Part shown: in pieces, positions 5,901 to 61,700 of the stretch | How the letters are laid out: each line of letters begins with the position of its first letter | Position numbering within the stretch: the first letter of the stretch is position 1 | Assembly: GCA_030038175.1 (NCBI GenBank) | Contig: JASHPN010000372.1 | Span: forward strand, 2,169 to 66,168 | Source: Verrucomicrobiia bacterium | Lineage (GTDB): Bacteria > Verrucomicrobiota > Verrucomicrobiia > Limisphaerales > UBA11358 | Direction of reading: 5' to 3' | DNA length: 64,000 nucleotides | Notes under the pieces: generated by a model | The model's database searches: none | What the model saw: the letters and a program-made list of their open reading frames with translations, nothing else | What the model was told of the DNA's origin: nothing | Translations under genes and position numbers: made by a program

Positions 5901-5904
5901 CCTT

Positions 5905-29711: not shown

Positions 29712-29886
29712 CGGGCGAAGTTACGGCATCAGACACGCGGTGTGAAGCAAAACCCGTTTGCTGAGGCTGGGAGCCGCTGGCCGGCCCCGAACCATTGTTC
29801 TTGCTTTAGTTTCAAAATTACATATAGGTGTTCCCGTAATTCCCTTGCGGCCAACCCGGCTATATCCAGGCGTATGGCTTCCGCCC

Positions 29887-32800: not shown

Positions 32801-33345
32801 ACCTGGATTCGACGGTTCGGCAAACCATTGGCGATTTCCTGTTCCCTAATACACCGGTGTTCCAACCGTTCGCGCCGTCCACGACACCCCAAAGTTTTAA
32901 CTACTATGAGCAATCCTTTTCCGCCAGCATCAATCAATTGCTGCCGGACGGATTTGTGGCGGGCCTCAGTTACAATTTTACCCATTCAGAACTCAAAACC
33001 ACCTATCCGCAAATTCCCGCTGCCTTCCTGCCCTCGCAGGACCAATGGGCCTGCCTGCACCAGATTGGCGCCTACCTGCTTTTCAACCATCCTTCCGGGT
33101 TGTTTGCCCAATTCGACGCGCACGGCTACTTGCAACAAAACTATGGTTACTCACCCGCGGAGCCAGGCAACGATTTTGTCCAGTTGGATTTAGAGGGTGG
33201 CTGGCGGTTTTTTCAAAGGCGCGCCGAATTGCTTGTGGGAATCCTGAATCTCACCGGCCAAAATTACAGCCTCAATCCGCTGAATGTGTACTCTGAACTG
33301 CCGCGCAAATGTGTGTTCTATGGACAATTTAGTTTTGAGTTTTGA
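29887..33345 (+). CDS. Fusion protein: FecR domain + TPR repeats + C-terminal outer-membrane beta-barrel-like domain
   Basis: The track ORF begins at 29758. The in-frame TTG at 29887 gives a clean signal peptide, (M)NAKTIFAAGLFCLLACRLPAQ; the start remains uncertain. FecR-like core (RPGDRVRTGERSRADIYL...AAIRGTDFLVRV...IVLDGSVALKN). TPR-like segment (ALDKSLELSPRNAQALALKGFLL, RLALQLDPGDPTGWLYSAL). ~600-aa Y/G/N-rich C-terminal region ending ...VFYGQFSFEF. Confidence 0.75.
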   Translation: MNAKTIFAAGLFCLLACRLPAQTASPAPGPMTNYLAVIQGDVEVSLAGSGPWVPAKLNQTLRPGDRVRTGERSRADIYLAGGMVIQKSEFSEIEIPPTGNVVFRRGIFKIFDRERDHRLELRMPTATAAIRGTDFLVRVGDDGTSEIIVLDGSVALKNAHGEVLLANNERGLAEPGQPPRKSAVIEAVNDLIQWNLYYPAVVDVDTLGFTAAEQQALAPSLDEYRAGDLVRASDAYDWKRANLSDAETIYRAELLLSLGQVDEAKKRLDTAPSLPAASALLKLIKAVKFERTTDTHPNATAAEWLAESYYQQSLANLPAARLAARRAADLAPGFGFAWERVAELEFCFGRSHEALIALDKSLELSPRNAQALALKGFLLAAQNNIRDATRWFDRAIATDGALGNAWLGRGLCRIHTGRRSEGLRDLLMAAALEPQRSLLRSYLAKGFSDAGENVLADKEIRLALQLDPGDPTGWLYSALIEQQQNQVNPAITDMEKSESLNDNRQIFRSKMLLDQDNAVRSVNLATMYDDADMYDVGVREAARAVTYDYDNASAHLFLSDSYNALRDPTGFNLRYDTAWFNELLLANLLAPVGADRLSQTLSYQEYSKLFESDGPGFADEISWRSDGELNEMAGQYGTYKNTSWAADLDYQHNNGVRANNQLDDTSGDVTVKQQLTPSDTVLGIAQFENYHSGDNFQYYNFYTAYRTNYEYGEHQDPTFVGGYQHEWSPGNRTLVLGGRLEDEQHFSQSQAPQLAVYLNPSGTIADVFNQPFDVALQDELLIYTAEFCQIVQQDRYTLIVGGRWQGGQFTYSDSLTPNPPSPPLFDPASGSFSAPFQRLDGYGYLTVKPVDKLWLTGGFAYDAMTYPANFRNVPDSGGTDERQLPEPKAAIVWSPLKQVTLRGVYARSLGGVSLDDSYRLEPTELAGFVQTFRSVIPESIVGSVSAEDVQLEGLALDLKFNHGTFAGLEAQNLDSTVRQTIGDFLFPNTPVFQPFAPSTTPQSFNYYEQSFSASINQLLPDGFVAGLSYNFTHSELKTTYPQIPAAFLPSQDQWACLHQIGAYLLFNHPSGLFAQFDAHGYLQQNYGYSPAEPGNDFVQLDLEGGWRFFQRRAELLVGILNLTGQNYSLNPLNVYSELPRKCVFYGQFSFEF

Positions 33346-33369
33346 AGGTGCATCTTGACACTGTTCTTG

Positions 33370-33472
33370 GGTAGGGACGGCGCGCTGCGCCGTCCGCGCC
33401 GCGTTCAGCGGCGCAACGGTTACGCGAGCCTGCTCCCGAATGGACAATTCCTTCCGCCCGCTTTACGGGCGG
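33370..33472. repeat. Three-hairpin repeat element, intergenic copy
   Basis: 48-nt core GGTAGGGACGGCGCGCTGCGCCGTCCGCGCCGCGTTCAGCGGCGCAAC with hairpins GACGGCGC/GCGCCGTC and GCGCCGC/GCGGCGC, plus a distal hairpin CCGCCCG-CTTTA-CGGGCGG. A second copy lies at 53093-53196, inside the PKS gene. Confidence 0.8.
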
Positions 33473-33624
33473 AGATCCCGCAATGCGAAATCGCGTTTCC
33501 TTTTTTGCACTTTTGACTTGCATTCGCCGCCAAAAGTTGTCTTATACACAATATAACCATTGCCATAATCAGTCGGGAACGCCGTCCGAGTTCGATAACA
33601 AAACTGCGAACGGCTGCGTTTTTG

Positions 33625-37846: not shown

Positions 37847-37881
37847 AATGTTCAAACCCAAAGATCGTGAAAAGGAACAAT

Positions 37882-38529: not shown

Positions 38530-38537
38530 TACCATAT

Positions 38538-43980: not shown

Positions 43981-43987
43981 GTTTTCG

Positions 43988-44114
43988 GAGCGCGGCTGTG
44001 TGCGAAAGCACCAGCCGCAGCAGCCCGACAAAGCCTAAACCACCGTGCTTCGTGCAGGCATCCCGGACGTGCGCGCTGCGACTGATCCCCCCGTGCGGGA
44101 CACAGTCGCGCTCC
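43988..44114. repeat. MITE-like non-coding element with inverted termini (short variant)
   Basis: Termini GAGCGCGGCTGTGT...ACACAGTCGCGCTC match 13/14 as an inverted repeat. Shares the left arm (…CCAGCCGCAGCA…) and right arm (GCTGCGACTGATCCC…GGGACACAGTCGCGCTCC) with 54769-54898. Lies between convergent gene ends. Confidence 0.75.
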
Positions 44115-44126
44115 CATTCTGCGGTC

Positions 44127-44969
44127 TTACGATTTAATATCCCGAAACTGGAACCAGGCCACGCCGCCGATGAGAAAGGTCAGGCTGGCGCCGGTCAATA
44201 TTCCCAGCGACTCGCCAATTTGCCACCAGGGAATGTGCGGTTGCAGCACCCTCTGCCAAACATTCAGGTGATAGCCGATAAAACACGATTGCAGGTCGTG
44301 GAAATAGGGGATTTCCATCAGGATCCGATCAATCAGGAACAGGGACAGCGCCAGGATGGCGGCGGCGGCCGGCTTCATGTTCCAACATGAAAACATAAAG
44401 GCCAGGCTCATAATCGTAATCGCCTTGATTACCAGAAACGCATGCGCCAGCACAAAATGATTCAGGCCGTCTCCAAAGGTGAAAATGCCAAGGTCCTGGT
44501 CCGGCACCTGGGTGAATAACCCGCCGGTCACCGGAAAAAACAGGCCGCAAACCATCAGGCCCCCCGTCATCAGCAGGAACACCAACACCCCGGAAAAAAT
44601 GCAGCCGGCCAGCCATTTTAAAATCAACAACCGCAGCCGCGAAACGGGGCGGGACAAAATCATCCGCAGCGTTCCATCTTCCTCTTCCTTGCTCACCAAA
44701 TCCCCGCCAATCAGGGCCACGTAAAGCGGCAGCATCGTATAAGCCAGGATCACGACGATGACCGAGTCCACCGTGAGCATGGACAGATAATTGGAAGCCG
44801 CAAACCCCTCGCGTTCCACCACGCGGCTCAGCGACCGGTGCGCCGGCGTATAAAACCGCAGGAGCACAACAATCAGGACCTGCGCCAGCAGCAACATCGA
44901 AAAGCCAATGTACGTCCGCTGCTTGCCGAACAGTTTCCAGAGTTCATTTTTGAGCTGGAAAAAAAACAT
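44127..44969 (-). CDS. ABC-2 type transporter permease
   Basis: 280 aa with six hydrophobic helices. Starts 1 nt after the ATPase gene stop. Confidence 0.75.
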   Translation of the reverse strand: MFFFQLKNELWKLFGKQRTYIGFSMLLLAQVLIVVLLRFYTPAHRSLSRVVEREGFAASNYLSMLTVDSVIVVILAYTMLPLYVALIGGDLVSKEEEDGTLRMILSRPVSRLRLLILKWLAGCIFSGVLVFLLMTGGLMVCGLFFPVTGGLFTQVPDQDLGIFTFGDGLNHFVLAHAFLVIKAITIMSLAFMFSCWNMKPAAAAILALSLFLIDRILMEIPYFHDLQSCFIGYHLNVWQRVLQPHIPWWQIGESLGILTGASLTFLIGGVAWFQFRDIKS

Positions 44970-44970
44970 T

Positions 44971-45867
44971 TCAGTTGTTGGCAGGTTTCATCAAGCCGAG
45001 ATAAAAGTCCTCGAGGGTCTGCTCATGCGGCGCGATTTCAAAAATCGAAATGTTCCGGCCCACGAGAAACCGCACCACTTCATCCGGACCCACCCGGTCG
45101 GCCAGGGAGATCAACCGCCCGTCGCGATGGCCGTTGATCAGTTTCGCCTCGCGCAATTGCGCCACCGCCGCCGCGAAATCTCCGGCGCGCAGGCGCATCC
45201 AGCTTTGTGTGCGCGTGGCCGCGGTCACCGTCCCCTCAAAAATCTTTTCTCCGCGGTTCAGCACGGCGATGCGCGTGCACAGTTGTTCCACTTCCGTCAG
45301 CAAATGAGACGAAAAAAGGATGGTCAGCCCCAGGTCCCGGTGCAGCCGCAGAATGGTTTGCCGCATGTCATGAATGCCTTCGGGATCGAGCCCGTCGCCC
45401 GGCTCATCGAGGATCAGCAGTTCCGGCTGCGGCAACAGGGCTTGCGCCAGGGCCAGGCGCGCGCGCATCCCATGCGAATAGGTTTTGACCCGGGATTTTT
45501 CCCGGCCGCTCAAGCCTACCCAATCAATCACTTCGCGAATGCGCCCGGCGCTGGTCGGCGCGGAATAGTGGCTCAGGATTTCCAGGTTTCGCCAGCCGCT
45601 CAGATAATCGTAGAAGGCGGGGGATTCGAAGATCGCGCCAACTCTGGCCAGGGCTGGTCCGCGCGCCGCCGTGACATCGTGTCCGCAGACGCGCACTTCG
45701 CCACTGGTGGGCCAGACCTGGCCGAGCATCATCCCAATGGTCGTGCTTTTGCCCGCGCCATTGTGGCCAAGCAATCCAAAAATCTCGCCCCGGCCGACTT
45801 CGAGATCAAGGTTTCGTACGGCCGGTTGCGCGCCAAAATGTTTGCTGAGCTTGCGCAGCGAGATCAT
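44971..45867 (-). CDS. ABC transporter ATP-binding protein
   Basis: 298 aa. Walker [10 protein letters not shown], a signature-like YSHGMRARL, Walker [13 protein letters not shown], and an H-loop (SSHLL). Its start forms an ATGA overlap with the upstream stop (45864-45867). Confidence 0.92.
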
Positions 45868-46382
45868 GGAAGTTCAATGAAATTTTTGACGTGCTCGTCG
45901 GCGTAGAGGTAATTGATCGCATGGGGCGAGCCGGGGGGGCCATGAAAGCTTTGCTTGTCGAAAAAGACCGGGATTTGATCCAGCGAATAGGTCGTTCCCA
46001 AAAGTTCGAGATGAGGAGTGCTGGCATTCGCGCCGTTGAGAAGAAAATTCCAGGAATAACTTGAGCCGGTCAATTCAAAAATCTTTTGGTTGTCCGAGGG
46101 GCAGCGCAACACGTTCGTCGTGCTGAGCTGGTTCATCAGCACCTTGTTGACGGAGTTGGTGGGCGGCCCATTGGTGGCCTGGTCCCACATCACCGGCAGG
46201 TAGTTGTTGTTTTCGTCAATATAGGTTTCCAGGGCCATGCCGATCTGGTGCAGGTTGTTGCGGCAGGAAGTGCTGCGGCCGCGTTCGGTGGCCTGGGAAA
46301 GCACCGGCAACAGGATGGCCGCCAGGATGGCCATGATCGCGATGACGACCAGCATTTCGATCAAGGTGAAGGCGCGTTTCAT
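45864..46382 (-). CDS. Prepilin-type N-terminal cleavage/methylation domain protein (pseudopilin-like, H-X9-DG-type tail)
   Basis: ATG at 46382 gives [28 protein letters not shown] (class III signal). The C-terminus [12 protein letters not shown] resembles the H-X9-DG motif common in PVC genomes. Confidence 0.85.
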
Positions 46383-46408
46383 GGCGATCCTGAAAAATTG
46401 CGGCGCAT

Positions 46409-47026
46409 TCAATGAATTCTTCCCTGCCGGATTTCCGTTTGCATTTGTTCCAGCAACGGCGCCAGCTCCGCCTTGGTCTCGGCGCTGCTGTTGGCGTAAA
46501 ATTGATTCAGGCCGATTTGCCGGACCTGTTGTTCCAATTCCGGACTGAGCGGCGGCGGGCCATTCGGGCCATAATTGCCCATGCTGCCGTCCGCTCCCGC
46601 CGCGCCCTGGGCCTGCAGCTTTTTGAGGGCGTCATCAATCATTTTTTTTCGCTGGCCGGCCGGCAACTGGCTGAAGGTATCCATCATTTGTTTGACTCCG
46701 CTCGGCAGCGTTGCATTGATAAATTTCGCCTTTTCCCCCTCGCTCATTTCGGCGAACCATTTTTTCCAACCGTTGTCCAGCCGCCATTTCATCCGCTCTT
46801 CCGGCGAGAGGGCATTGACTTCCCGGGCCAGTTCTTCGATGGCTTTTTCGCGTTCATCGGCGGACATTCCGGACAAGTCCGTGCCCGCAACGAATTGTTC
46901 AACGCGGTCGGCCGTCATTTTTGCCCGGGCGGAAAAGTGAAAAATCGCCAGCGCCACGGCCCACACTGCCGCCAGCGCGACCGCGGTCTGGACGAGCAAA
47001 CGAACTCGGCGGTCCTTGTTTGTCAT
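46409..47026 (-). CDS. Hypothetical single-pass membrane protein
   Basis: 205 aa. N-terminal TM ([20 protein letters not shown]) followed by a charged helical domain. Lies 74 nt downstream of the PKS stop on the same strand. Confidence 0.55.
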
Positions 47027-47100
47027 GAAACGAATATAGTCAATCCGAAAGATTCCGGCAAAAATAAAACGGGCGGCTGAAAGTGGCGTCCCATAAATAA

Positions 47101-50100
47101 CTAGCCGCTCGCGGCAAGGGATTTTTGACGCACGCGAGGCGCGAGCAGGCTGCCCATGCGCGCCGCCAGCGCTTCCACGCGCGCGGCGTCCAGCATTTCA
47201 AAATGCCGGCCCTCGAGGATTTCCTCGGCGCAGGCGCCCCGCGTAATTTGCCGGGCGGTGGCGGCCGCCAGCCCCGAACCGCTCAATTGCGAGTCGCGCG
47301 CGCGCCACAGGTGGACCGGCGCGTTCACCGGCTCCAATTTCAGGCTGCGAACCATATTGAGGTGGCGCATATATAATTGGAAATAGGATTTGACGCTCGA
47401 GTCCGCTTCTTTGGCCAGATCAAATCCGCGCCGGGCCAGCCAGGCGGAAAGTTCTTTCATTTGCCCCGGCTCATCGCGCGCGGCGATCAACTTTTTCGCG
47501 AGCTGCCCCATGGACGCCTCCAGGCCGTTCTTCCCGTTGGCTTTAAACAGGCCCAGTTGCGTGGAATAATCATAGAGTTCGGCGATCAGAGTTTTCAGCA
47601 CGACGTCGCGCGGGTAATCCGGTTCCAGGACCGCCAGGGGCGAATCCAACATCCCGGCAAAAGAAACAATGCGCCCGCGCCGTTCCAGTTCCCGGGCAAT
47701 CGCGACGGCGAACAAACCGCCGACGGAAAAGCCCGCCAGGCGCACCGGGCCTTCCGGCTGCCTCTGGGTTACAATGTCCGCGTATTGGTTCACCAGAGGT
47801 TCCAGCGCCTGCCATTCCTCGGACGCGCCCGCGACCACCCGCGATTGAATGGCATAAACCGGAAATTCATCCGGCAGTTTCCGGGCGAGTTCATCGTATA
47901 TGTTCGTAAGTCCTCCCGCCGGGTGGACGAAGAAAACCGGGGTCCCCGACGTGCCGGACCGCAAGGTGAGCAACTGTTCCGCGAAAACGTCCGCGACCGG
48001 GGCGGCCGGGGCATGTTCCGGCGCGGGCTTTGGCTTTTCGTCCGCGTCGCCCTTGCTCGATGCGAGTGACTGGTTGCAAATCTCCAGGATCACTGCGGCG
48101 AGATGATTGACCGACGTATTGGCCCCAAACTTTCCCGGCGGCAGCGAGATGCCAAACTGCATTTCCAGCCGGTTCATTAGTTCAAAAGCCATTAACGAAT
48201 CCACTCCCAGCTCTTTCAACGGCCGGGCCGGATCCAGTTTGGCCGGATTCATTCGCAGCACCTTGGCCGCCGACTCGGTGACCCGGGAAACCACCAGGGA
48301 CATTCGGTTCTCCGGCGGCGTGGAGGACAGAAGTTCCCGGATGTCCCCGTCGGCCCCGGAGTTTCCCGGGTCCATGGCCTGATGGATTTCCGAGTAACGC
48401 GGCGACCGGAACGGGGCCGACGCGAATAGTTTTCGCCAATCCACGTGCATGAAAGCGATTTGCTCCGCGTCGCTTTGCATCAGCCGGCCGAGCATGTCCG
48501 TGGCCTGGATTGGCGGCAGGCCATAGACGCCGTGCGCGGTCATATTTTCCGCCGCCCGTTTGTTTCGCGCCAGCATGCCCACGTCGGCCAGGGCGCCCCA
48601 ATTGACGGACAAGGCCGGCAGGCCGATCGCCCGCCGGTAATGCGCCATGCCATCCAGGAAACTATTGGCCGCGGCATAGTTCGCCTGCCCTGCGGCGCCA
48701 CAAAGCGCGCTGAGGGATGAAAACATCACGAAATGGTCCAGGCGCATTCCCCGGGTGGCGCGATGCAAATTCCACGTGCCCGTGACTTTGGGCGCCATCA
48801 CTCGTGAAAACCGTTCCGGCGTGAGCTGCAAAAGGAGTCCGTCATCCAACCCCGCCGCCGCATGGAAAACCCCGCGCAAAGGCGGAAATTTTTCCTTCGC
48901 CAATTTAAACAGCCGCTTCACGTCCCGTTCATTCACGATGTCCGCTTTGACCGCCAGCACCTTTGCCCCGGATGCGCGAAGCGCCGCCATCGCCTCCCTG
49001 GCCTCCGGCAGGACCGTTCCACGACGACCTGCCAAAATCAAATGCCGCGCCCCGCGGTCCGCCAGCCACCGGCCCACGGCCAGGCCAAAGCCGCCTAATC
49101 CGCCGGTAATCAGGTAGGAAGCGCGAGTGGGAAATTCTATCTTCTCCCGCGGCGGAATCCGCTTCGGAACCACCGGCACGCCATCCATTTTGAGGACAAT
49201 TTTGCCAATATGTTTGGTTTGCGCCATGAGGCGAAATGCCTCCGCCGCTTCCGTAACGGGCATCGTCTGGTGCGGCAGGGCTTTGAGTTTTCCGGTGCGG
49301 ATCAATTGTATGACCGTTTGCAACAGGTTCCGGGCCGTTTCCTGCTGTTCGGCCAGCACCTGGCCCATGTCAATCGCAAACAACGATAGATTGTTTCGGA
49401 AGGGGCGCAGTCCGATGGCGCTGTCGGCGTAGATATCACGCTTTCCGATTTCCAGAAATCGCCCGCCCGGCGCCAGCGTGGACAGTCCCTTGGCAATGCC
49501 ATCGCCGGAAAGCGAATTCAGGACCAGATTCACCCCCGCGCCGCCCGTCAGCTTTCGGATTTCGCCGGCAAACGCCGTTGACCGCGAATCCATGACGTGC
49601 CGGATGCCGAGCCGCCGGAGATAAGCCCTCTTTTTACCGGTGCCGGCCGTGGCAAAAATTTCGGCCCCCGCCAGTTTTGCGATTTGAATGGCCGCCAGCC
49701 CGACGCCGCCCGTGGCCGCGTGGATGAGGATTTTTTCCCCCCGCTGGATCCGTCCCAGGTGATGCAGCGCATACCAGGCCGTCATAAAGGCGACCGGAAT
49801 CGTGGCCGCCTCGGGGGCGGTGAGGCCGGGCGGTTTGTGAACCGCGAACGCGGCCGGCACAGTGGTGTGCGAGGCAAAGCACCCGGCGCTGTTCGCAATG
49901 ACTTCGTCACCGGTGTGAAACTCTTTAACTCCTTTGCCCACCCGCACGACCCGGCCCGAACATTCATCGCCCAGCAACAAATCCAGGTCGCTGTTCACGG
50001 GATAAATGCCCAGCGATTTCATGACGTCGCGGAAATTCAGCGATGCCGCGCTAATCTCAATTTCGATTTCATTGCGTCCAGGCTCGCGCCGCGGCACTTC

Positions 50101-53100
50101 CACAAGGGCCAGTGCGTCCAGGACGCCGGAGGCCGGAAGGCAGAGTTGGTAACCGGATTGTTCCGAAACCGGATTTGCCGGCGGATGGCGCTCCAGCGTC
50201 GTGTTCGAAAGGCGTCCGGCGAACCGTTCGTTTTTTCGCCAGGCCACTTCCGTTTCGCCGTCGCTGCCCGCAAGCTCCCGCAGCAAATGCGCGGCATTTT
50301 CTTTTGGATTTGTCCCGCCGAGGTCCACCAGGCGCGACGGCCATTTTGCAAATTCGTTGATGACCGTGCGCCCCAGGCCAATGACCGGCGATTGTGCGAC
50401 GGAAACGTTTTCGCCGGCCTGCACCGGCTGCGCGCGCCGCGTCACCATCCAAAGTTTCAAGGCAGCGTGCTCGGGCGCCAGGACCTGCGCCAATTGCATC
50501 AAACTGTGGCAACCGGCGATTTCGGCGCGCCGGAGCGCCGCCGAATCCAGGCTCGCCGGTTCGGCCCCGTCCAATGCCCAGAGATGAACAATGCCTGCGA
50601 GGGAATGGCCGTTGGTGGCGTTGATCTGCGAGAGCAATCGCGGCCAATCAGGTGATGCCGCGCACAATTCAAACGAGTCCGCGCCGAGGCGCTGGAGTTT
50701 GTCGCCGGCAAAAACAAGGACCGGCCGGACTCCCCGCTTCTTGAGCAGGCCGGCCAGTTCGAGCGCCACTCCGGAATGGTCCGCGCACAGCACCCACGTG
50801 CCCCGGGCCAGCCGTTTTCCAGTGCCTAACGGTTTTGGTATCCACGTATTTTCATACAGCCAGTTGTCCGGATTGTTGGCCCGGCTCGAAGACATGCCCC
50901 GGACGGCCTGGGCGCGAAAGCCCTGGATTTCCATCAGCACGTTGCCCGACGCATCGGTCACTTGAAAATTCGACGCCGTGGCGTGTGTCCCCGCCGCGAT
51001 GACTTGCGAGTGGCAATACATTTCCCGGGTCGCGGGCGCGAACACCGTGATCCGGTCAATATGCGCCGGCAACAGTGTTCCGGTGCTGATGACCGACCGC
51101 GGAACGGCAAATAACGATGTTTGGAAACACGAATCCAGCTGCGCCGGATGGAAGACATAATTTTTGGCGCCGCGCCGGAGTTGCTTCGGCAGGCGCACCC
51201 GTCCCAGCGCTTCGCCGTCGCGGCGCCAAAGCGCGTCCACGCCCTGGAACGACGGCCCGAACAGATATCCAGAGTGTTCGCAGGCAGCGTAGATCTGCGC
51301 GGAAGTCAGCTCCACGGCCATGCGTTTCCGCACCGCTTGCAAGTTCACCGGCGCGGGACGGCTGGCCGCCAGGGGCCGCAATTTTGCCGCGGCGTTCAGG
51401 GTCCACTCGCCCTCGGTATCCGAAGCCCGGCTCAAGAATTTCAAACGCCCGTCCGCCGGCGTGTATTCCGTCTGCAATTGCATCGGCTCCTTGTTGTCCG
51501 AAAGGAATAGAACTTTCTGAAACTCCATGTCCTCGACCTCGATGGCCCGGCGGGAATGCAAGGCGTGACCGGCTCCCAGGGCCGCTTCGATGTACGCCGC
51601 GCCGGGAAAGACGATGTGGTCCTGGACGCGATGTTCCTTGAGATACGGAAACATTTCCAGATCCAGCCAGGTGTTCCAGGTCGGCTTGGCCGTGCGCAGT
51701 TGCGCCATTAAAAGCGGATGCGCGGGCCGCGCCATCCGCGCCGCATGCATCGCGGCCGTTTCGCGCCAGTACTTTTCCCGTTGCCACGGATACGACGGCA
51801 GCGCCGTTTCGGCGTTGGCCTGCGGGTAAAACCGGCTCCAATCCACGGCCGCGCCGGCCGTGTGCATCGCCGCCAGGTTGGAAAGCATCGAGAATACCTC
51901 AGGCTCCTTGCGGCGCAATGAAACGAAAACTTTTCCCGGCGCGGAACGCCGCGCCAGCGTTTCAGAAATGGATACGGCCAAAACCGGATGCGGGCTTAAT
52001 TCCAGGAAATAGCGGTGTCCCTCGGCAACCAGCGCCGAGATGGCCTGGGCGAATTGCACGGGCTGGCGCACGTTATGCCACCAGTAATCGGCTCGAAAAT
52101 CGCCGTTCCCGGCCGCGCGCCCGGTGACCGTGGAGAAAATCTTCAGCGTCGGCGGAGAGGCCGCCACCTCTCCCAGCGCCCGCAGCAGCGGCTTTTGCAC
52201 GCCGTCCATGTGGTGGCTGTGGAAGGCATAATTCACGTGCAGGAAACGGTTGAAGGTTCCCTGGTGATCGAGGGTCCGCGCAATGGTTTTAAGCACATCG
52301 CCTTCGCCTGAAAAAGTGACGGATTGCGGACTGTTGATCGCCGCGACGGCGGCCTGGCCGTTAAATTTCGCGGCCATTTCCTTGGCGGCATTTTCATCCA
52401 ATCCCGCCGCGAGCATGCGCCCGGCATCCGAGGCGGCGTCCATGCAATGCCCGCGAATGAAGATGACCCGCGCCGCTTCGCGCAGCTCCAGGACGCCCGC
52501 GACGTGCGCCGCCGCGGCCTCGCCCACGCTGTGCCCCACCACCGCCGCCGGCCGCACGCCCCACGACTGCCACAATTCCGAAAGCGCCACTTGCAAGGCA
52601 AAAATCGCAGGCTGCGCAATGGCGGTCTGCTGGAGCCGGGAGCTTCTCTCGCTGCGGCTCAGTTCTTCCAGCAAAGACCAGCCGCCAAACTCGCGAAACA
52701 GCTCGTCGCACTCTTCAATCTTCTTCCGAAATAGTGTGTTGGTCTTTAACAACTCGCGTCCCATGCCCCGCCATTGAGGCCCCTGGCCGGAAAAAACGAA
52801 GACCGGGCCGGCGCCGGCGGCTGCTTCGCCGGCAATAATCGCCGGCGCGGTCCGTCCGGCGGCGAAATCAGCCAGCCGCGACGCCAGGTCGCCGCGGGAA
52901 TCACCGATGACACAAAGCCGGTTTGAGAAATGCGAACGTCGCGCCGCCGCCGCGGCGCACACGGCGCCGGCATCGGTTGTCTTCTTTGTCAGCAACTTCC
53001 GATAGTTTTTCGCCACCGCCTTCAGCGCCTCGGGCCCCTGCGCGGAAATGGTTAGGACCAATGGCCTGCCTGCAAAATCTTTCCGTATATCCTGGTAGGG

Positions 53101-54525
53101 ACGCCGCGCTGCGGCGTCAGCGCCGCGTTCAGCGGCGCAACCATGTGGCGCGCCGTTTCCTGGCGGGAGATTCTCCTTCGCCCGCTCCGCGCGGGCGGGG
53201 ACATCGCAACTCGACCTCCCGCCCATGGAATCCGGCGCCGATTCCAAAATCGCGTGTGCATTCGCGCCGCCGAAACCGAAGGAATTGACCCCCGCTAACA
53301 ATCGTCCGGAGTCCGCCGGAAATTTCCGGCGGCGATTGACCACGCGGAGTTTCAGTTTTGCAAAGTCAATGTTTGGATTGGGTTTTTTGAAATGGAGGCT
53401 CGGCGGAATTTCCCGATGCTTCAAAACCAGCGCCGCTTTGATGAGACTGGCAATCCCCGCGGCCGCTTCCGTATGGCCGATATTGGTTTTGACCGAGCCG
53501 ATGAGGCACGGTTTTGCGCGACCCTCGCCCAGCGCCATCCCCAGGGCATTCGCTTCGATCGGATCGCCCACCGGCGTCCCGGTGCCGTGCGCCTCAATGT
53601 AATCAATCTCCGCCGGGGAAATGTCCGCCGCCGCGCACGCTTCGCGCACCAGCGCCGCCTGCGCATTGAGGCTGGGAACCGTAATGCCGTTGGTTCGCCC
53701 GTCCTGGTTCGCCGCCGTGCTGCGGATCACCGCGTAGATTTTGTCTCCCGCTGCCTGGGCCGCCGATAGCGGTTTGAGGACAATGGCGCCCACGCCTTCC
53801 GCCCGGGCAAACCCGTCCGCGCTCGCGTCGAAGGCCTTGCACCGGCCCTCCGGCGACAGCATCGCCATGCGGCTGAACGCCACAAAGTTGGCGTGGCTGA
53901 GCAAGGCATTGACGCCTCCGACGATCGCCATGCGGCATTCGCCCGCCCATAGGCTTTGGCAGGCCACGTGGCAGGCGTTCAGCGCCGAGGAGCACGCCGT
54001 GTCAATGGCCAGGCTTGGTCCGGCCAAATCAAAACAATACGAAATGCGGTTGGCCGCAATGCTGCCCCCCACGCCGGTGGGCGAATAAATGTCCAGGTTC
54101 GCCCATTCACCGCCGGGATTTTGCATCGTCGCATAATCCGTCGTGGATATGCCCACAAACACTCCCGTGCGTGAGCCGCGCAATTTTTCCAAAATCTGGC
54201 CCGCGTCTTCCAAAGCTTCCAAACTGGCCTCCAGCAACAATCGCTGCTGGGGATCAATGCAATCCGCTTCACGGGCCGAGATGCCGAAGAATGCCGGGTC
54301 AAACAAATCAATTCCTTCGATAAATCCCCCGCGTTTGGTCACCGATTTCCCGCAGCGGCCGGGCGCCGGATCATAATACGCCGCGACACTCCAGCGGTCC
54401 GGCGGGATTTCCCGCGTCGCATCGGCGCCCGCGATGAGCATGTCCCAGAACTGTTGCGGGGAATTTGCGCCGCCAGGGAAACGGCATCCCATTCCGATGA
54501 TGGCAAGAGGTTCTTTTACCGGCAT
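47101..54525 (-). CDS. Type I polyketide synthase, single fully reducing module with thioesterase (KS-AT-DH-psiKR-ER-KR-ACP-TE)
   Basis: 2474 aa. Positions below are approximate and counted by hand.
KS: DTACSSAL (Cys ~178), EAHGTGT, NIGHTEAAAG.
AT: GQGPQW, GHSVGE (Ser ~666), YAFHS.
DH: LKEHRVQDHIVFPGAAY (~aa 960).
ER: LIHAATGGVGLAAIQIAK (~aa 1600).
KR: YLITGGLGGFGLAVGRWL (~aa 1800), with YAAAN further downstream.
ACP: LGVDSLMAFEL (Ser ~2110).
TE: GFSVGG (Ser ~2267). Confidence 0.93.
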   Translation of the reverse strand: MPVKEPLAIIGMGCRFPGGANSPQQFWDMLIAGADATREIPPDRWSVAAYYDPAPGRCGKSVTKRGGFIEGIDLFDPAFFGISAREADCIDPQQRLLLEASLEALEDAGQILEKLRGSRTGVFVGISTTDYATMQNPGGEWANLDIYSPTGVGGSIAANRISYCFDLAGPSLAIDTACSSALNACHVACQSLWAGECRMAIVGGVNALLSHANFVAFSRMAMLSPEGRCKAFDASADGFARAEGVGAIVLKPLSAAQAAGDKIYAVIRSTAANQDGRTNGITVPSLNAQAALVREACAAADISPAEIDYIEAHGTGTPVGDPIEANALGMALGEGRAKPCLIGSVKTNIGHTEAAAGIASLIKAALVLKHREIPPSLHFKKPNPNIDFAKLKLRVVNRRRKFPADSGRLLAGVNSFGFGGANAHAILESAPDSMGGRSSCDVPARAERAKENLPPGNGAPHGCAAERGADAAARRPYQDIRKDFAGRPLVLTISAQGPEALKAVAKNYRKLLTKKTTDAGAVCAAAAARRSHFSNRLCVIGDSRGDLASRLADFAAGRTAPAIIAGEAAAGAGPVFVFSGQGPQWRGMGRELLKTNTLFRKKIEECDELFREFGGWSLLEELSRSERSSRLQQTAIAQPAIFALQVALSELWQSWGVRPAAVVGHSVGEAAAAHVAGVLELREAARVIFIRGHCMDAASDAGRMLAAGLDENAAKEMAAKFNGQAAVAAINSPQSVTFSGEGDVLKTIARTLDHQGTFNRFLHVNYAFHSHHMDGVQKPLLRALGEVAASPPTLKIFSTVTGRAAGNGDFRADYWWHNVRQPVQFAQAISALVAEGHRYFLELSPHPVLAVSISETLARRSAPGKVFVSLRRKEPEVFSMLSNLAAMHTAGAAVDWSRFYPQANAETALPSYPWQREKYWRETAAMHAARMARPAHPLLMAQLRTAKPTWNTWLDLEMFPYLKEHRVQDHIVFPGAAYIEAALGAGHALHSRRAIEVEDMEFQKVLFLSDNKEPMQLQTEYTPADGRLKFLSRASDTEGEWTLNAAAKLRPLAASRPAPVNLQAVRKRMAVELTSAQIYAACEHSGYLFGPSFQGVDALWRRDGEALGRVRLPKQLRRGAKNYVFHPAQLDSCFQTSLFAVPRSVISTGTLLPAHIDRITVFAPATREMYCHSQVIAAGTHATASNFQVTDASGNVLMEIQGFRAQAVRGMSSSRANNPDNWLYENTWIPKPLGTGKRLARGTWVLCADHSGVALELAGLLKKRGVRPVLVFAGDKLQRLGADSFELCAASPDWPRLLSQINATNGHSLAGIVHLWALDGAEPASLDSAALRRAEIAGCHSLMQLAQVLAPEHAALKLWMVTRRAQPVQAGENVSVAQSPVIGLGRTVINEFAKWPSRLVDLGGTNPKENAAHLLRELAGSDGETEVAWRKNERFAGRLSNTTLERHPPANPVSEQSGYQLCLPASGVLDALALVEVPRREPGRNEIEIEISAASLNFRDVMKSLGIYPVNSDLDLLLGDECSGRVVRVGKGVKEFHTGDEVIANSAGCFASHTTVPAAFAVHKPPGLTAPEAATIPVAFMTAWYALHHLGRIQRGEKILIHAATGGVGLAAIQIAKLAGAEIFATAGTGKKRAYLRRLGIRHVMDSRSTAFAGEIRKLTGGAGVNLVLNSLSGDGIAKGLSTLAPGGRFLEIGKRDIYADSAIGLRPFRNNLSLFAIDMGQVLAEQQETARNLLQTVIQLIRTGKLKALPHQTMPVTEAAEAFRLMAQTKHIGKIVLKMDGVPVVPKRIPPREKIEFPTRASYLITGGLGGFGLAVGRWLADRGARHLILAGRRGTVLPEAREAMAALRASGAKVLAVKADIVNERDVKRLFKLAKEKFPPLRGVFHAAAGLDDGLLLQLTPERFSRVMAPKVTGTWNLHRATRGMRLDHFVMFSSLSALCGAAGQANYAAANSFLDGMAHYRRAIGLPALSVNWGALADVGMLARNKRAAENMTAHGVYGLPPIQATDMLGRLMQSDAEQIAFMHVDWRKLFASAPFRSPRYSEIHQAMDPGNSGADGDIRELLSSTPPENRMSLVVSRVTESAAKVLRMNPAKLDPARPLKELGVDSLMAFELMNRLEMQFGISLPPGKFGANTSVNHLAAVILEICNQSLASSKGDADEKPKPAPEHAPAAPVADVFAEQLLTLRSGTSGTPVFFVHPAGGLTNIYDELARKLPDEFPVYAIQSRVVAGASEEWQALEPLVNQYADIVTQRQPEGPVRLAGFSVGGLFAVAIARELERRGRIVSFAGMLDSPLAVLEPDYPRDVVLKTLIAELYDYSTQLGLFKANGKNGLEASMGQLAKKLIAARDEPGQMKELSAWLARRGFDLAKEADSSVKSYFQLYMRHLNMVRSLKLEPVNAPVHLWRARDSQLSGSGLAAATARQITRGACAEEILEGRHFEMLDAARVEALAARMGSLLAPRVRQKSLAASG
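53093..53196. repeat. Three-hairpin repeat element, copy embedded in frame in the PKS KS-AT linker
   Basis: The 48-nt core at 53093-53140 matches 33370-33417 at 45 of 48 positions (hand-aligned). The distal hairpin CGCCCG-N7-CGGGCG sits at the same offset. On the coding strand it is translated as ...NGAPHGCAAERGADAAARRPYQD... Confidence 0.8.
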
Positions 54526-54768
54526 ACGGTTATGGAAAAAGTGATCGTGGGACGGAAAGCGGCTAAAACCAGCATGTTCAATCGCCGTAATAACATTTTA
54601 TCCATGATTCGTTCCTTCAGGGACTGTATTTTACCGAATCAGAATAAAAAATGCACGGAAAAATATCCGGTAATCGCCAAAATTTTAACGAATATCTGGC
54701 GCTGTGTGGTAAGCCGAATCCGGGGTGGCAATCCCGCCGTCTTCCACGGCAAACGCGCCCCCATTCCA

Positions 54769-54898
54769 GAGCGCGGCTGTGTGCGGCAGCGCCAGCCGCA
54801 GCACGTTGCCAGCCGGAAGCCTTGCGCATACGGCACGGTTCAATGCTTGCGGACGTGCTGCGACTGATCCCGCTCGGAGCGGGACACAGTCGCGCTCC
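54769..54898. repeat. MITE-like non-coding element with inverted termini (short variant), followed by a degenerate partial copy at about 54902-54990
   Basis: GAGCGCGGCTGTGTGCGGCAGCGCCAGCCGCAGCACG ... GCTGCGACTGATCCCGCTCGGAGCGGGACACAGTCGCGCTCC, with the same arms and length class as 43988-44114. The adjacent GGAGCGCGGCTGCC... and ...GTCCAGCCGCAGCACGCT fragments suggest a second, decayed copy. Confidence 0.75.
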
Positions 54899-55304
54899 GG
54901 CGGAGCGCGGCTGCCTGCGCCGCCGCTGCAAGTCCCGATGCTTTTTATCGGGATCGCCTTTGGCGAAGGAGGGTGTCGGAGTCCAGCCGCAGCACGCTCG
55001 AATCCACGATGCCTGATCCGGACGACACATCCGCGCCTCCGGCATTTGCCCCGTTCCCAAACGAACCGGCCATTCGCCAATGGGTCGCCGACGCGCTGAA
55101 TTTGCCGCTCGAAGAGATCACCGCTGAATCCGAAGCCCACAATGGGTCTGCATCCCGCGGTGTCCCGCCATTCCGGCATCGGTATAGTTAATATTAGTAT
55201 AAGTTCAGCCTTTCCCGTCGGCAGACTCTATGATTATAATTCCTTTATGATCTAATTAGTACAATGCGGCGCGTTTTGAAAATCCAAAAAAAGTAAAAAA
55301 TCGC

Positions 55305-55722: not shown

Positions 55723-58700
55723 ATGAAAAAATACTCCCTGCGTGCCTTCACGATCACAATGATGCTCATGTTTGCGGCGGCTGCCGTCCATGCGCAATCG
55801 GCCCAATCGGCCTTTACCAACGCCCTGATGCAACTGAACCCCGTGGCATATTGGCCGTTGCAGGAATCGGCCCAGCCGCCGGTTGCCGACGTCGAGACCA
55901 ATTATGGCTCGCTCGGATCGGCCGCCAACGCTTATTATTCCAGCACCAATCTGCTCCCCGACCAGCCGGGAGCTTTGCCTGGCGACTCGGACACCTCGGT
56001 GATGCTCAACGGCGGCAACGGCTCATTTTTGGCCGTGCCTAACAGCGATCCCCGGACCGCCGTGCTCTCGGCGCCGTTCACCGTGGAGGCGTGGGTCTAT
56101 CCAATGAATTACTCCGGTGATATCGCCATCATTTCCAAGGCTGCGGCCAATCCCGGCGGGTTGAACGGAAGCACTTATCGCGGCGGCTGGGTCTTGAGCC
56201 AAAATTACCTGGCCTATCAGGACGGCAACAAATTGCAGGGCTGGAGTTTTCACGTGTACAACGGGCAGGGATCGGCCACTAACGGCGGCCCCGAGGGCGG
56301 CGCCGAGGCCGGAGTGTTTTATAGCTATAACACCAACGCGAGCTGGTATTATCTGGCGGCCGTCTTTGACGGCGTCAATTGCACTTTCTATGTAAATGGC
56401 ACCAACGTCAATTCGATCAATTCCGGGTACAGCATTCCAATGTCCGGTTCTTATGTGCCTGATACGTGGGATCAATTGTGCATTGGCTGCGGTCGCGGCA
56501 TCAATGACAACCGGTTTGATGGCGGCATTGATGAAGTGGCCATTTATACGAACGCGCTCTCGGCCGCAACTATTCAGGCCCACTACAACGCCGCCGGCGG
56601 CTCGGGTTATTCCGGCACGGTTTTGGGAAACAACCCGCTGATGTATTGGCGAATGGATGACAATAGTTACACTCCGCCGCCCGCCACCAGCGCCTATCCC
56701 GTCGCCGCCAATTACGGGTCCGTTGCGGGCCTGGAAGGATTGTATCTTTCCGGAGATGTTCCCGGCGTGGCCGGCCCGTCGTTCCCTGGCCTTGGCAGCC
56801 TGACCAATGCCTGCGCCTTTAACGGCATCGGCACGGATAACACCAATCAAATGGCGGTGTTTACCAACGGCGTGGCCATGGCCACCAATGTCGCCGCTTC
56901 CGGCCTGGTCATCACCAATCGCGATCCCTCGTTGATGGTGGCGTCGAACAGTTTTTCGATGGTTTGCTGGTTCAAATGCAATCCGGCGGATAATCGGTTT
57001 CAGGGTCTGGTGGGCCAGGGCGATCATTCCTGGCGGCTGGCCCTGGGCAACGGCGGCAATGCCGGCCATCTCCAATTCAATTCCGGCTTGACCAACAATC
57101 CCAGCGTTGGCGACCTCGTGTCTCCAAACGTCTTCAACGATGGTAATTGGCATTTTGCGGCATGTGTCGCAAGCGTGACCACGAACAGTCTCGGCACTTT
57201 GCTGGTGACCAATATTCTTTATGTGGACGGCGTGGAACAAGTGATTCAGGTCAACTCCAATTCTTTGCCGCAGCCGGGCCAGGTGCAATTGATTCCTTTG
57301 TTGGGCGGCTCGCCGGATTATTTGCTTTCAGGAGGCACGACTTACAATCAGAGATTTCTTGATGGCGACCTGGCTCATGTCGCCTTCTTCACCAACGCAT
57401 TGACCGCGGCGCAGGTCATCAACCTGTACACGAACGCCAATGGCGGTATTATGCCGGGGCCGGAAATCTCCTCGCAACCGTATCCGTATCCCTCGGTCCG
57501 AACGGTGACCGGCGGCCCGGGCGCCTATATCTTTGAAGCCGTGGTTGCCAATGGCAATGGCCCGCTGACGTATCAATGGTATTTCAACCAAACGGGTTCC
57601 AACTATTTGGGTGCAACCGCTCTGGTGGATAATCTCTCGAATATTGTCGAGTCTCAAACGTCGCAATTGACGGTCACCAACCTCACGCAGAACAACAGCG
57701 GCTATTATTTCTGCGTGGTCAGCGATGCGTTCGGCCAGTCTGTCACCAGCGCCATTGTGGACGTTCAAATCCAGGCCGATCCCGTGATTCTGTCGCAAAC
57801 CCCGGTTGGCAACTTCAGCCTTTATCAAAACCAGACTGCCTCGCTGTCCGTGACCGCCGGCGGAGCGACCAACGGTTTGGGTTATCAATGGTACACCAAC
57901 GGTGTGGCCGATACCTCGGCAGGCGGCGGGGCCGCTTATAATTTCCCGGACGTTCCGGTTCCGGCGAATGAGACTTTTCAGGTTGTGGTGACCAATGATT
58001 TCGGCGCGGTCACCGGCGCGCTCGCGACCGCGACCTCCGTGCAGTCGTTGCCCGCGGCGTTGACCGGCAGTGCTTATGGCGCGGGCATTCTGGCCCTGAA
58101 TCCGACGGTCTATTTCCCAATGCACGAAACCGGAGCGCCGGCGCCGGGTGACATTGAAACCAATTACGGAACTTTGGGCTCATTGGGGACTGGATATTAT
58201 GCCGATTGGGACGTGAACAATGGCGCGCCCGACAGCACCTGGGTGCTGCATCAAATCCGCGGCGCAATCTCGGGCGATTTGGATGGCGCAGCGGACCTGG
58301 AAGGGAACAACGGCAACAATGCCATGAGCCACTTGTTTGTCCCGCATACGTCGCCCCTCACCACGCTCAGGCCGCCGTTTAGCGTCGAGTTCTGGGTCTA
58401 TCCCGATAATAACGGCTTTGGTGACATTATCACCCAGGATGGAACCTGGACCAATGCCGGCGCCGCCAATCACCAAAACACGGACGGCATCCGCATCGTA
58501 TGGAACCGGAGCAATATTCAGCTTTACGGAGATGCCACGATTAACACCACGACCGCTACCGTATCGTTGAACCAATGGCACCATGTGGTGCTGACTTACG
58601 ATGGGACCAACATGATCTATTATTTGGACGGAGGCCAGAAGGCCTCCGGAACCACCACCAGCTTCATCCCTGATACCTGGGATCCGCTAATGGTGGGTTG

Positions 58701-61700
58701 CGGCTTTTGGACCTACAATTCCGGAGGAAATTACAACATCCAGTTTGGAATTGACGAATTGGCCGTCTACACCAACGTGCTGCAGGCTTCCGATGTCAGC
58801 ACGCACTATAATGATGGCGTGAGCGGAGCGGCCGGCACTTATTTTGCCGCTGTCACCAACGACAATCCGCTGCTCTATTACCGCATGGATTCTCCCACCT
58901 TCACCGCCCCGCCGATGAGCACCTGGCCCGTGATGACCAATTATGGCGCCGCCATGCTCAACGGCGTCTATAGTCCGGGCACCACGCCGGGCATCGTCAG
59001 CGGCCCGAACAACGGGTTCGTTTCAGCCGGCGGCCTGGTCGCCACCAACGCAATGGCTGCCAATGGCCTGAGCACGTTTGCCGAAGCCACCGACCCGGAC
59101 GCCTTTGACCCAGCCGGCCCGGACACGCCATTCACTGTTTCATTGTGGTTTAAGGGCAACCCTGCCGATTCCTCCCGATATCAATCCATGGTCAGCGAAG
59201 GCACCGGCTGGCAAATCAACCAGGGCCAGACCGGCGGCCTGGATATTTGGCTCGTGAACGACTTTAGCAGCAAGGGAATCTATAACGACGGCCTCTGGCA
59301 CCAGGCCGTGCTCACGTACTCAACGAATGTGCTGGCGCTCTATGTGGACGGAGTCCTGGACAATATCAGCACCAACAGCGGTTACACCAATCCGCCGCCC
59401 GACACCGTTGATTTCACCGGCTTCGGTTGTGATGCCCGGTATCTCAACAGCAACGGCGGTTCGGGACGGCAATACAGTGGCGACCTGTGCGAATTCGCCT
59501 TCTGGAACGGTACGGCCCTGACGCCCGCTCAAATCCACTCCCTTTACGCCAGCGCGGCTATGGCGCCCGAAATCACGAAACAGCCGATTTCCGGAACCGT
59601 CAACGCCGGAACTTCCTTCACCAACACCGTGACGGCGCTTGGCGCCAACCTGACCTATCAGTGGTACCGGGATGGCCAGCCGCTCCCCATCGGCGCCCAG
59701 ACCAACCTGGCCGACGGCGCAACCAATGCGGCTTTGATTCTTAGCCCGGTCCTGGCTTCCGATGCCAGCACCGATTATTACGTGGTAGTTGCCAATGGCG
59801 GCGGTTCCGTCACCAGCGCGGTCGCCACCCTGACTGTGAATACGCTTCCCATCATTACCACTTCAACGCCCACGCCTTATACCAACCTGTTCGCGGTGTA
59901 TGCCGGCGCCAACCCGGCGTTTGCCGTCGCGGCCAGGGGCGCGACTCCACTCGCCTATTATTGGTTCACCAACGGCGTCGCCGTCGGCAATGATAACACG
60001 GCGGCGTTCGCCATGAGCAACGTCCTGCAGGGCTTCACCAATTTCTGTGTCGTCAGCAATTACCTCGGCGTGGCCAGCAATGTCTGGAGCGCCCAGGTGC
60101 TTCCGGTTCCAGCCGCGCCGTATCCGCAGTCCGTCATGGCCCTCAACCCCATTGGCTATTGGCGCATGAATGACACCAACCTCGATGGCGTGGATTATGC
60201 AAACGGCGGCTCGAGTTTTCTCGGCGGCGGCGATTTCGGCTGGGTTTGCCACGACTACGCCGGCGGCAACGACGGCCTCTATACCAATTGTTACCTGGGC
60301 TGGCCCGGTTACAATCCAACCGAAGATCCGTCCGATTCTTCCGCGCAGTTTGGCCAGACGGATGGTCTGGGCAACGACTACGGCGACAGTTTGGCCTTTG
60401 GCATTGCGGGCATTAACTTCGCCTCGCCCGCCGGGACGAGCCAATCGTTCACCGTGGAAGCCTGGGTCAACGGCTATCAGCAGTCCTACGATGCCGGCAT
60501 CGTCACCCTGGGCTGGGGCGGCGGCGGCGAGCAGTTCGATTTGGACACGGGCGCCGACCCGGGCCACAACTTCCGTTTCTTCTTCCGTGACGCCTCGGAC
60601 GCGGTTCACGCGGTCAACAGTTCGATTGCCACCTCGGGCTTCGGCACGTGGTATCATCTGGCCGGCGTCGTGGACGAAACGAACGGCGCCATGTCGCTTT
60701 ACGTCAATGGTCTGCCCGTCGGGACCACGACCTACTCGCCCGGCCTGGGCATCTTGTCCTCCACCAATCTGATGGGCATCGGGTCCAGGTTGGGTTCGGC
60801 CACAACGAATTACAACTACCAGTTCGAGGGCAACATCAACGACGTGGCGATTTATAATTATGCCCTGACCGCGAACCAGATCCTGAACCAATATGTGGCC
60901 TCGGGAGTGCCGCCCTTCCTGGCGCCGGCGCCCGTGTCTGCCACCAACGCCAGCGGCAACAGTACTTTAGTCATCCCCGCGGCCGCGGCCGGAACCGCCC
61001 CGCTGACGGCGTGGTGGAAGGATGTCAGCGCAGGAACAAACATCCTGAGCGCGACCACCAACGGCAACTATCTCAATGCGAACCTCACGGTAAGCAACGT
61101 GCCCGCTGGTTGGAACAATGATCAACTCGAGCTCATCGTGAGCAATGCCATTGGCGGGACGAATGTGTTCGTGAACCTGACCATCTATACCAATGCACCC
61201 CAGGTGACTGCCCCTCTGCCCGCGGCCATCACGCTGCCGGTCGGCAAGAGCTACGCGTATTCAGTTCAGGCTCAGGGAGAGCAGCCTCTGGCCTATCAAT
61301 GGTATCTCAACGGCACGGGCATCAGCGGCGCGACGGCCTCGGCCTACACGTTTACGGCGGCAAACAACGCTGTCTATAGCCTCATCGTGACCAACAGTTA
61401 TGGCGCGGCGACCAACTTCTCCACCGTCACCGTCGTCGCTGCTCCGACTGACACGTTCAGCACGAACATCCTGAATCTGAGCCCCGTGGGTTATTGGCCG
61501 TTGCAGGAGACCAATGCGCAGGCCGCGACGACCATGGAGACCAACTACGGCACCCTGGGCGCGTTGGGGAACGCTTATTACGCGGGCACCAATTCCGCGG
61601 CGCCCGGCGTCGGCGGCATCACCTTCGGCCAAACCCCCGGCGCATTGACCGGATCAGGCGACAACGATCCCGCTATTGTCATTGGCGGCCAAAACACCAA

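Follow-up and report, generated by a model that had tools for sequence, protein, structure and literature searches.

The closest described counterparts of the element studied here are the GTAG-tagged repetitive extragenic palindromic (REP) sequences defined by Di Nocera et al. 2013 (BMC Genomics 14:522, PMC3733652), who reported subfamilies with different stems, the occurrence of G.T pairs, dimers whose spacers are conserved and REPs flanking the genes for REP-associated tyrosine transposases (RAYTs). The same work described intragenic GTAG REPs inserted in frame, most abundant in the verrucomicrobium Opitutus terrae, and its Additional file 3 holds about 70 entries from this species, including dimer peptides that end in ...PPY. 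Here we analysed a 64-kb stretch of DNA (contig JASHPN010000372.1; the window means this whole stretch), in which one palindromic element occurs twice, once between two genes and once in frame within a type I polyketide synthase (PKS) gene, in the linker between the ketosynthase (KS) and acyltransferase (AT) domains. We give a probability of roughly 85% to this element being a mobile, non-autonomous, GC-rich GTAG-type REP dimer that is tolerated in the PKS as a passenger loop. As such it would resemble the REP doublets forming hairpins (REPINs) and the bacterial interspersed mosaic elements (BIMEs) of Escherichia coli. REPIN-RAYT systems (Bertels and Rainey 2011, PMC3116915) share three properties with the window family: two inverted REPs form a larger unit that can fold into a hairpin, this non-autonomous unit is accompanied by a gene for an HUH/Y1 transposase, usually present once and with the repeats on its flanks, and inheritance is mainly vertical within a lineage. 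In-frame insertion by such repeats has already been described, including in Verrucomicrobia, and the mechanism is not new. An earlier inspection of the window, the sequence-only reading, had believed that nobody had described the phenomenon in such an element or host, a belief that the GTAG REPs of O. terrae contradict (Di Nocera et al. 2013, PMC3733652).

On direct reading, the PKS copy (GGTAGGGACGCCGCGCTGCGGCGTCAGCGCCGCGTTCAGCGGCGCAAC, 53094-53141) and the intergenic copy (GGTAGGGACGGCGCGCTGCGCCGTCCGCGCCGCGTTCAGCGGCGCAAC, 33370-33417) shared 45 of 48 bases. This was the identity originally claimed, and the PKS core was present as described except that its register was one base off (53093 should be 53094). 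Two of the three differences formed a compensatory pair in hairpin 1, G-C versus C-G, with the stems GACGGCGC/GCGCCGTC in the intergenic copy and GACGCCGC/GCGGCGTC in the PKS copy, and the remaining one lay in the gap between the hairpins. Hairpin 2 was identical in both copies, as first reported, and its 19-mer (GCGCCGC-GTTCA-GCGGCGC) matched the window exactly twice, compared with a mean of 0.22 matches in window shuffles, of which 3 out of 100 reached two or more. In a repeat search of the whole window, the two sites were matched to each other along 93 nt (family D7), and the family profile (nhmmer) detected only 33367-33491 (E 2.2e-21) and 53092-53220 (E 7.5e-21, model positions 4-128) in the window, both over almost its full length. 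Folding, which had been suggested as a check, showed that both copies were more stable than shuffled sequences on both strands (z -3.6 to -4.2). No Rfam 15 family matched at gathering thresholds anywhere in the window, and when the search of both copies was relaxed to E up to 1, the matches were no better than chance and scored far under the threshold.

Both copies lie on the plus strand. The PKS copy spans 53092..53224 (about 131-133 nt; the nhmmer match ends at 53220 and the alignment of the 3′ module at 53224). It begins with a 5′ REP at 53094..53118, in which a GGTAGGG head, containing GTAG, precedes hairpin 1 (GACGCCGC-GCT-GCGGCGTC, 53100-53118). Then come hairpin 2 at 53120..53138, whose sequence is kept family-wide, hairpin 3 (CGCCCGC-TCCGC-GCGGGCG) at 53179..53197 and, by alignment, an inverted 3′ REP at 53198..53224 (GGGACATCGCAACTCGACCTCCCGCCC; consensus GGGACATCGCAGCGCGATGTCCCTACC) that has decayed to six of nine stem pairs. 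The intergenic copy covers about 33367..33501 according to nhmmer and alignment, with the GGTAGGG head at 33370, hairpin 1 (GGACGGCGC-GCT-GCGCCGTCC) at 33375..33395, hairpin 2 at 33396..33414, hairpin 3 (TCCGCCCG-CTTTA-CGGGCGGA) at 33453..33473 and a 3′ REP that is likewise decayed. The third hairpin thus sits at the same offset in both copies, as had been noticed, but the extent of ~104 nt that went with this observation was too short: with the fourth hairpin, an inverted GTAG-type palindrome still recognisable in both copies with its pairing partly lost, the element reaches 131 nt. Since the 3′ REPs of both window copies have decayed, both are probably immobile relics.

For a wider sample, one genome per species was scanned for the exact hairpin-2 19-mer, which gave at least 115 loci, and a profile built from 40 full-length copies of Verrucomicrobiota metagenome-assembled genomes (MAGs) produced 116 non-overlapping matches in the fetched loci. 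The further copies for which the sequence-only reading had suggested a search therefore exist: among the matches listed, at least about 60 copies in more than 30 Verrucomicrobiota MAGs (Verrucomicrobiia, Limisphaerales; a few labelled otherwise) had the same architecture. From 5′ to 3′ this consists of GGTAGGGAC-stem-GTCC; GCGCCGC GTTCA GCGGCGC; AAC with a spacer of 3-45 nt; TTCCGCCCGC-loop-GCGGGCGG; and GGAC-stem-GTCCCTACC. The unit is 100-140 nt long, both of its ends are GTAG-headed palindromes that are mutually inverted, and its middle is made of two further hairpins. Full-length copies end with GGAC-stem-GTCCCTACC, which is the inverse of the 5′ REP, as in a dimer. The GGTAGGG ahead of hairpin 1 was found in the two window copies and almost throughout the family, with GGTGGGG and GGCAGGG as variants, as is known from other GTAG families. 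The family ranges over soil and freshwater Verrucomicrobiota, mainly Limisphaerales-type MAGs. SMAG_U10030, SMAG_U5876 and SRP257259_co1_135 carried 4-7 loci each among the matches listed; the 64-kb window has two. The family with these four hairpins appears to be new here, as does its wide distribution among Limisphaerales-type MAGs. Typical copies were also seen in MAGs labelled Bifidobacteriaceae, Bifidobacterium or Sulfotelmatobacter (L001, L031, L035, L043, L056, L080, L103 and L098), which suggests misassigned or contaminated public bins.

The compensatory pair pointed out between the two window copies proved to be part of a family-wide covariation. Specifically, eight of the nine pairs of hairpin 1 were changed on both sides and 99% of the cells were paired, values that 0 out of 500 shuffles reached, while slid controls were only 20-52% paired. 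Two-sided changes were present in 9 out of 17 pairs of hairpins 3 and 4 together, and in six out of nine for the 3′ REP alone. Hairpin 2 was conserved in sequence, its variants differing mostly in the loop, a picture that is biased because the sample was picked by hairpin 2 itself. On the GTAG strand, hairpin 1 contained 18 G.T cells and no A.C cells, and it is therefore on that strand that pairing is selected. The stem version of the PKS copy, GACGCCGC/GCGG(C/T)GTC, was also found in other genomes, where it forms the 5′ REP of L053 and, in inverted orientation, the 3′ REP of L043, L076, L105 and L109, so the difference between the window copies reflects circulating stem versions. From these alignments we infer that the compensatory difference predates the PKS insertion, that alternative stem versions circulate and that the hairpin is under selection.

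Compared with the GTAG REPs of Di Nocera et al., the window element has the same GTAG head beside a GC-rich stem of 6-10 bp, and alternative complementary stems and G.T pairs in stems are common to both. Both form inverted dimers with a spacer of 20-100 bp and favour positions just 3′ of open reading frames (ORFs), and RAYT genes flanked by repeats accompany both. The in-gene copies of O. terrae lie, like the window insert, in genes for known proteins, with a peptide that ends in ...PPY versus ...RRPY in the window. However, the family sequence differs, and GTAGGGAC had no match in the text supplements of Di Nocera et al. 2013 (PMC3733652). The window family also differs from the GTAG REPs in that its spacer contains two strongly conserved extra hairpins, in a fixed four-hairpin unit present in many species, and in that its insert peptide is about 44 aa long compared with the usual 20-30 aa for GTAG REP dimers. 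The word 'polyketide' is absent from the host genes given in the same paper (PMC3733652). The KS-AT linker of a PKS appears to be new as a host site, and no report of it was found in the literature searched.

The link to RAYT transposases came from locus L085 (MAG MFD03044.bin.1.155), where eight element copies cluster at 460-1860 around and in one ORF. This ORF is a RAYT gene (798-1593, minus strand) that carries ~3.5 tandem copies in frame, between the HUH motif and the Tyr helix. With the copies left in, Pfam gave no match, whereas the product with the copies spliced out (149 aa) matched the REP-associated tyrosine transposase family of NCBIfam, NF047646, with 87.2 bits (cutoff 80) and an E of 9e-25. 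Its relatives numbered 1829 at E <=1e-10, and the best 120 of these 1829 were mostly ~150 aa long, many of them named RayT by their source. That a RAYT gene has been invaded by the repeats belonging to it appears to be a new observation. It also sets the window family apart from classical REPINs, which are described as extragenic and mostly from Proteobacteria; about one-tenth of the sampled copies of the window family are intragenic. In addition, three intact relatives were inspected in their contigs (L198, L202 and L204), and each of these RAYTs had GGTAGGGAC-stem-GTCC and GGAC-stem-GTCCCTACC palindromes on its upstream side and again directly downstream.

No target-site duplication was detected among 29 full-length copies, in which the mean longest direct flank match was 1.2 nt versus 0.9 nt in shuffled pairs. 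Transposition of the HUH/Y1 type, as in IS200/IS605 and RAYT systems, is expected to leave no such duplication, and the result is therefore consistent with it. Altogether, mobilisation in trans by a RAYT is most likely, judging from the sequences compared. The terminal inverted repeats, the length of ~100-140 nt, the lack of coding capacity and the longer outer inverted flanks of some copies would also suit a classical MITE (miniature inverted-repeat transposable element) moved by a DDE transposase. We consider this very improbable, because the target-site duplication is missing, both termini are palindromes in their own right, headed by GTAG and covarying in their stems, one RAYT clade is flanked by the same palindromes, and no insertion sequence with matching ends was present among the fetched loci. 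Enterobacterial intragenic MITEs (ERIC and others; Delihas 2007, as cited in PMC10969869) are, like the window family, small non-coding repeats with open frames and occasional in-frame fusions. They are of the terminal-inverted-repeat type, without the GTAG-headed terminal palindromes, whereas the window family lacks the target-site duplication.

The gene that hosts the second window copy (47101..54525, minus strand) encodes an intact type I PKS of 2474 aa with the order KS-AT-DH-ER-KR-ACP-TE. All domains were detected, and the catalytic motifs DTACSS, EAHGTGT, GHSVGE and GVDSL were present (KS, AT, ACP). The element is located between KAsynt_C_assoc (the KS C-terminal extension, aa 382-433) and the CurL-like_PKS_C linker domain (aa 490-551). 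The stop-free reading through it that had been described was borne out: the 2474-aa ORF continues through the element as ...MGGRSSCDVPARAERAKENLPPGNGAPHGCAAERGADAAARRPYQ..., residues ~434-478 of the PKS come from the element, and ENLPPGNGAPHGCAAER would be among the peptides of the insert. The closest orthologues were ~70% (P0001 on contig L116, L118 and L119) and 60% (L120 and L121) identical at the amino acid level, and exactly 40 aa were missing at the insert site in all five of them and in every other aligned homologue. The contig of P0001 was syntenic over 44.3-54.5 kb of the window. At the nucleotide level, the blastn high-scoring segment pairs to the orthologues broke at 53051 and restarted at 53231, so that 180 nt of the window faced 60 nt of the orthologues, a net gain of 120 nt that kept the frame. 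The linker reads APDSM-GGRSSCDVPARAERAKENLPPGNGAPHGCAAERGADAAARRPYQ-DIRKDFAGRPLVL in the window and APEKAVPRKSAPAKSTRKPLLL in L119.

These alignments bear on the proposal that the segment is ancestral KS-AT linker and the intergenic copy a fragment of a PKS gene. The post-KS loop does vary in length among type I PKS homologues, as this proposal would have it. However, since all orthologues examined are without the 40-aa segment, the segment has to be taken as an insertion and not as ancestral linker. Moreover, upwards of 100 sites with nothing else in common carry the 131-nt architecture, among them MnmA, an oxidoreductase, a helicase and numerous intergenic regions, and the flanks of the intergenic copy have no similarity to PKS, which leaves the proposal with a negligible probability. 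On the evidence of the alignments, the segment is inserted into the linker, in line with what the sequence-only reading had proposed; the two checks by which that reading could have failed, on orthologous linkers and on further copies, both left it standing.

An AlphaFold2 model of aa 1-930, calculated with a 79-sequence alignment, reached a mean predicted local distance difference test (pLDDT) score of 90.1 and a pTM of 0.87. The sole internal stretch with a pLDDT below 50 was 435-472, which is the insert. In the model it follows the final strand of the KS (421-429) and precedes the helix and strand with which the linker domain opens (477-495). According to this model, the insert is probably a disordered surface loop of ~44 residues rich in Ala, Gly, Arg and Pro.

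Two other PKS homologues also had additional sequence in this region. In P0003 (L117, ~1740-1860), an in-frame tandem duplication of 2 x 57 nt with PVSASGFDAAREAAAPKRSA-like repeats lies just before the AT GQG motif; as a REP element it was rejected, its sequence being unrelated. P0007 (JGI 3300047160) has additional sequence in two places near the KS-AT linker, ...PRAGIVGRMDPLPLRNPGV... as well as ...LPRSPLRSKSGVVKWPGA..., which could represent another repeat insertion.

A different question is whether the insert has been co-opted, with mRNA hairpins that slow ribosomes between KS and AT for co-translational folding or with a loop that has a role in docking or regulation. The 5′ REP and hairpin 2 of the PKS copy are perfectly paired while its 3′ REP has decayed, the mRNA strand of the PKS-copy region folds far more stably than its shuffles (z -4.2), and the site is a domain boundary, where translational pauses have often been proposed and might also operate here. 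Yet in the intergenic copy, too, the 5′ half is intact and the 3′ REP decayed, so the pattern is not specific to coding sequence. Furthermore, the orthologues all do without the insert, the prediction for it is disorder, and in-frame copies are found in unrelated proteins at unrelated types of site. Co-option therefore seems rather improbable to us.

We prefer the REP dimer as a passenger. A RAYT would recognise the GTAG head and the hairpin on single-stranded DNA and move the element in trans. One copy landed in the PKS, in the variable loop that separates the KS end from the strand with which the KS-AT linker domain begins. Its minus-strand reading has no stop, the gain keeps the frame and the PKS ORF stayed open, and the insert would persist at the linker position as a harmless passenger and not as a functional module. 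Several points weigh against this account. The closest PKS orthologues are only ~70% identical, and a metagenome scan gave no PKS relative above that value. Divergence of the remaining linker means that a clean empty site is lacking and that the junctions can be placed only to within a few bases; the net gain is 120 nt for an element of ~131 nt. The REPs that flank the RAYTs of L198, L202 and L204 share the head and the tail of the family, not the hairpin 2/3 spacer, and L085 is the one locus where the composite element is directly tied to a RAYT. When the window and all fetched loci were searched by tblastn for the L085 RAYT, L085 alone was matched; the window holds no RAYT gene, and only two element copies.

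In-frame copies were also found in other genes. In MnmA, the same orthologous insertion was present in L011 and L058, which come from two different species and were assembled independently, one of the two assemblies belonging to another sequencing project. The HUP domain of this protein takes residues 1-239 to cover profile positions 3-201 (239 residues against 199). Pfam placed further in-frame copies in a pyridine-nucleotide-disulphide oxidoreductase (Pyr_redox_2, L077) and in a DUF4011/AAA_11 helicase (L023). Other long ORFs over copies, in L050, L076, L082, L093 and L044, seemed to be upstream or spurious frames and were excluded from the count. With this count, the intragenic share was ~1/10 of the copies sampled via hairpin 2 (~60). 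Five out of six intragenic copies, including the PKS copy and that of L085, were antisense to the gene. In the antisense reading, two of the three frames are stop-free, with the recurring peptides ...APLNAARTAQRAVPT... and ...CAAERGADAAARRPYQ....

The MnmA case is also relevant to the possibility that the PKS insert arose in the assembly, as a chimera that the repeat induced in a contig built from metagenome reads. The most likely source of the window is an uncultured Verrucomicrobiota genome, repeats do cause misassembly, and the exact PKS protein has no record in public assemblies. Against this, both flanks of the insert are co-linear with orthologous PKS genes and the frame is kept over 2474 aa, while a chimera would join unrelated loci, and the analogous insertion in MnmA was recovered in two independent assemblies. 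The probability of an artefact is thus very small indeed, and none of the four alternatives (ancestral linker, co-option, DDE-type MITE, artefact) is favoured.

In their behaviour, these copies recall the Rickettsia palindromic elements (RPEs; Ogata et al., as summarised in PMC3733652 and PMC10969869), which are palindromes of ~100-150 bp found in frame in unrelated housekeeping genes, where they are tolerated as additional peptide at positions compatible with the protein fold. The likeness is one of behaviour alone, in-frame insertion at fold-compatible positions (PKS linker, MnmA, Pyr_redox_2 and helicase). RPEs belong to AT-rich obligate intracellular alphaproteobacteria and differ from the window family in host, composition and sequence. 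RPE-1 has no known RAYT link, and the fraction of RPEs in genes is much higher than that of the window family. A broader proposal is that the four-hairpin REP dimer acts in Limisphaerales-type Verrucomicrobiota as a recurrent source of in-frame insertions, in the loops and linkers of conserved enzymes (so far MnmA, a flavoprotein oxidoreductase, a helicase and a modular PKS) and even in its own RAYT. We hold this to be unlikely, though worth stating; if true, it would constitute a second RPE-like phenomenon, in GC-rich and free-living hosts, with an element shaped for tolerance by stop-free antisense frames and an antisense bias. In that case a function could have been gained by some of the inserts, for example by the loop in the KS-AT linker.

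These results have consequences for annotation. A stretch of 40-45 aa rich in Ala, Gly, Arg and Pro in a protein of Verrucomicrobiota may be a repeat insertion and not a genuine linker, and analyses of PKS domain boundaries and linkers should mask such stretches. The post-KS loop apparently accepts ~44 extra residues, a possible guide to insertion or splice points in PKS engineering. A widespread REP-dimer family with its RAYT clade, in an under-studied phylum, could also be of help in strain typing and in studies of the long-term persistence of REPINs.

The intergenic copy starts 25 nt past the stop codon of a FecR/TPR/TonB-like ORF (29758-33345) and lies upstream of an NHL-repeat ORF (33622-35337). 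A terminator role was looked for at this copy, and the one weak terminator-like site at 33482-33497 was not above the shuffle level. The copy has an extra outer flank on the plus strand (33340..33369), shared with the copy of L115 at 92% identity over 87 nt that include the element start. In L115 and L089 the outer flank is matched by an inverted counterpart past the 3′ end of the element; at the PKS copy an outer inverted flank was looked for and none was found. More generally, the sequences outside the element were mutually inverted complements, such as CCCCGAA...TTCGGGG, in L050, L055, L070, L072, L089, L115 and at window 33340-33369, and they reached ~25 nt in L115 and L089. Either the element favours existing palindromes as targets or longer variants exist. 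An intergenic G-rich stretch at 2783-2830 of the window, with an 11-bp hairpin (GGGGATGGCCC-AAAC-GGGCCATCCCC) followed by GCCCC, looks like a solo 3′ REP; it was rejected as a third copy, since the family profile does not detect it.

The window also contains repeats of other kinds. A second, unrelated palindromic family of ~130 nt occurs at 43983-44115 and 54764-54900 (plus strand), and also in L098 at ~5890-6010, where it adjoins the main element. It has inverted ends, GGAGCGCGGCTGTGTGCG... and ...GGGACACAGTCGCGCTCC, and a nested inner palindrome, CAGCCGCAGCA/TGCTGCGACTG. In the window, its two copies point the same way and lie on either side of the operon of the PKS and an ABC transporter (44127-54525). 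At 37208-38660 there are three tandem units of ~660 nt, the starts of which are 68-86% identical (AAAAGGAACAATATGTTTGACCT...), which suggests tandemly duplicated small genes. Finally, an ORF at 55723-63162 (plus strand), divergent from the PKS, encodes a secreted-looking protein of 2479 aa with many internal repeat modules that carry the motif IDEVAIYTNALTA (repeat family D1).

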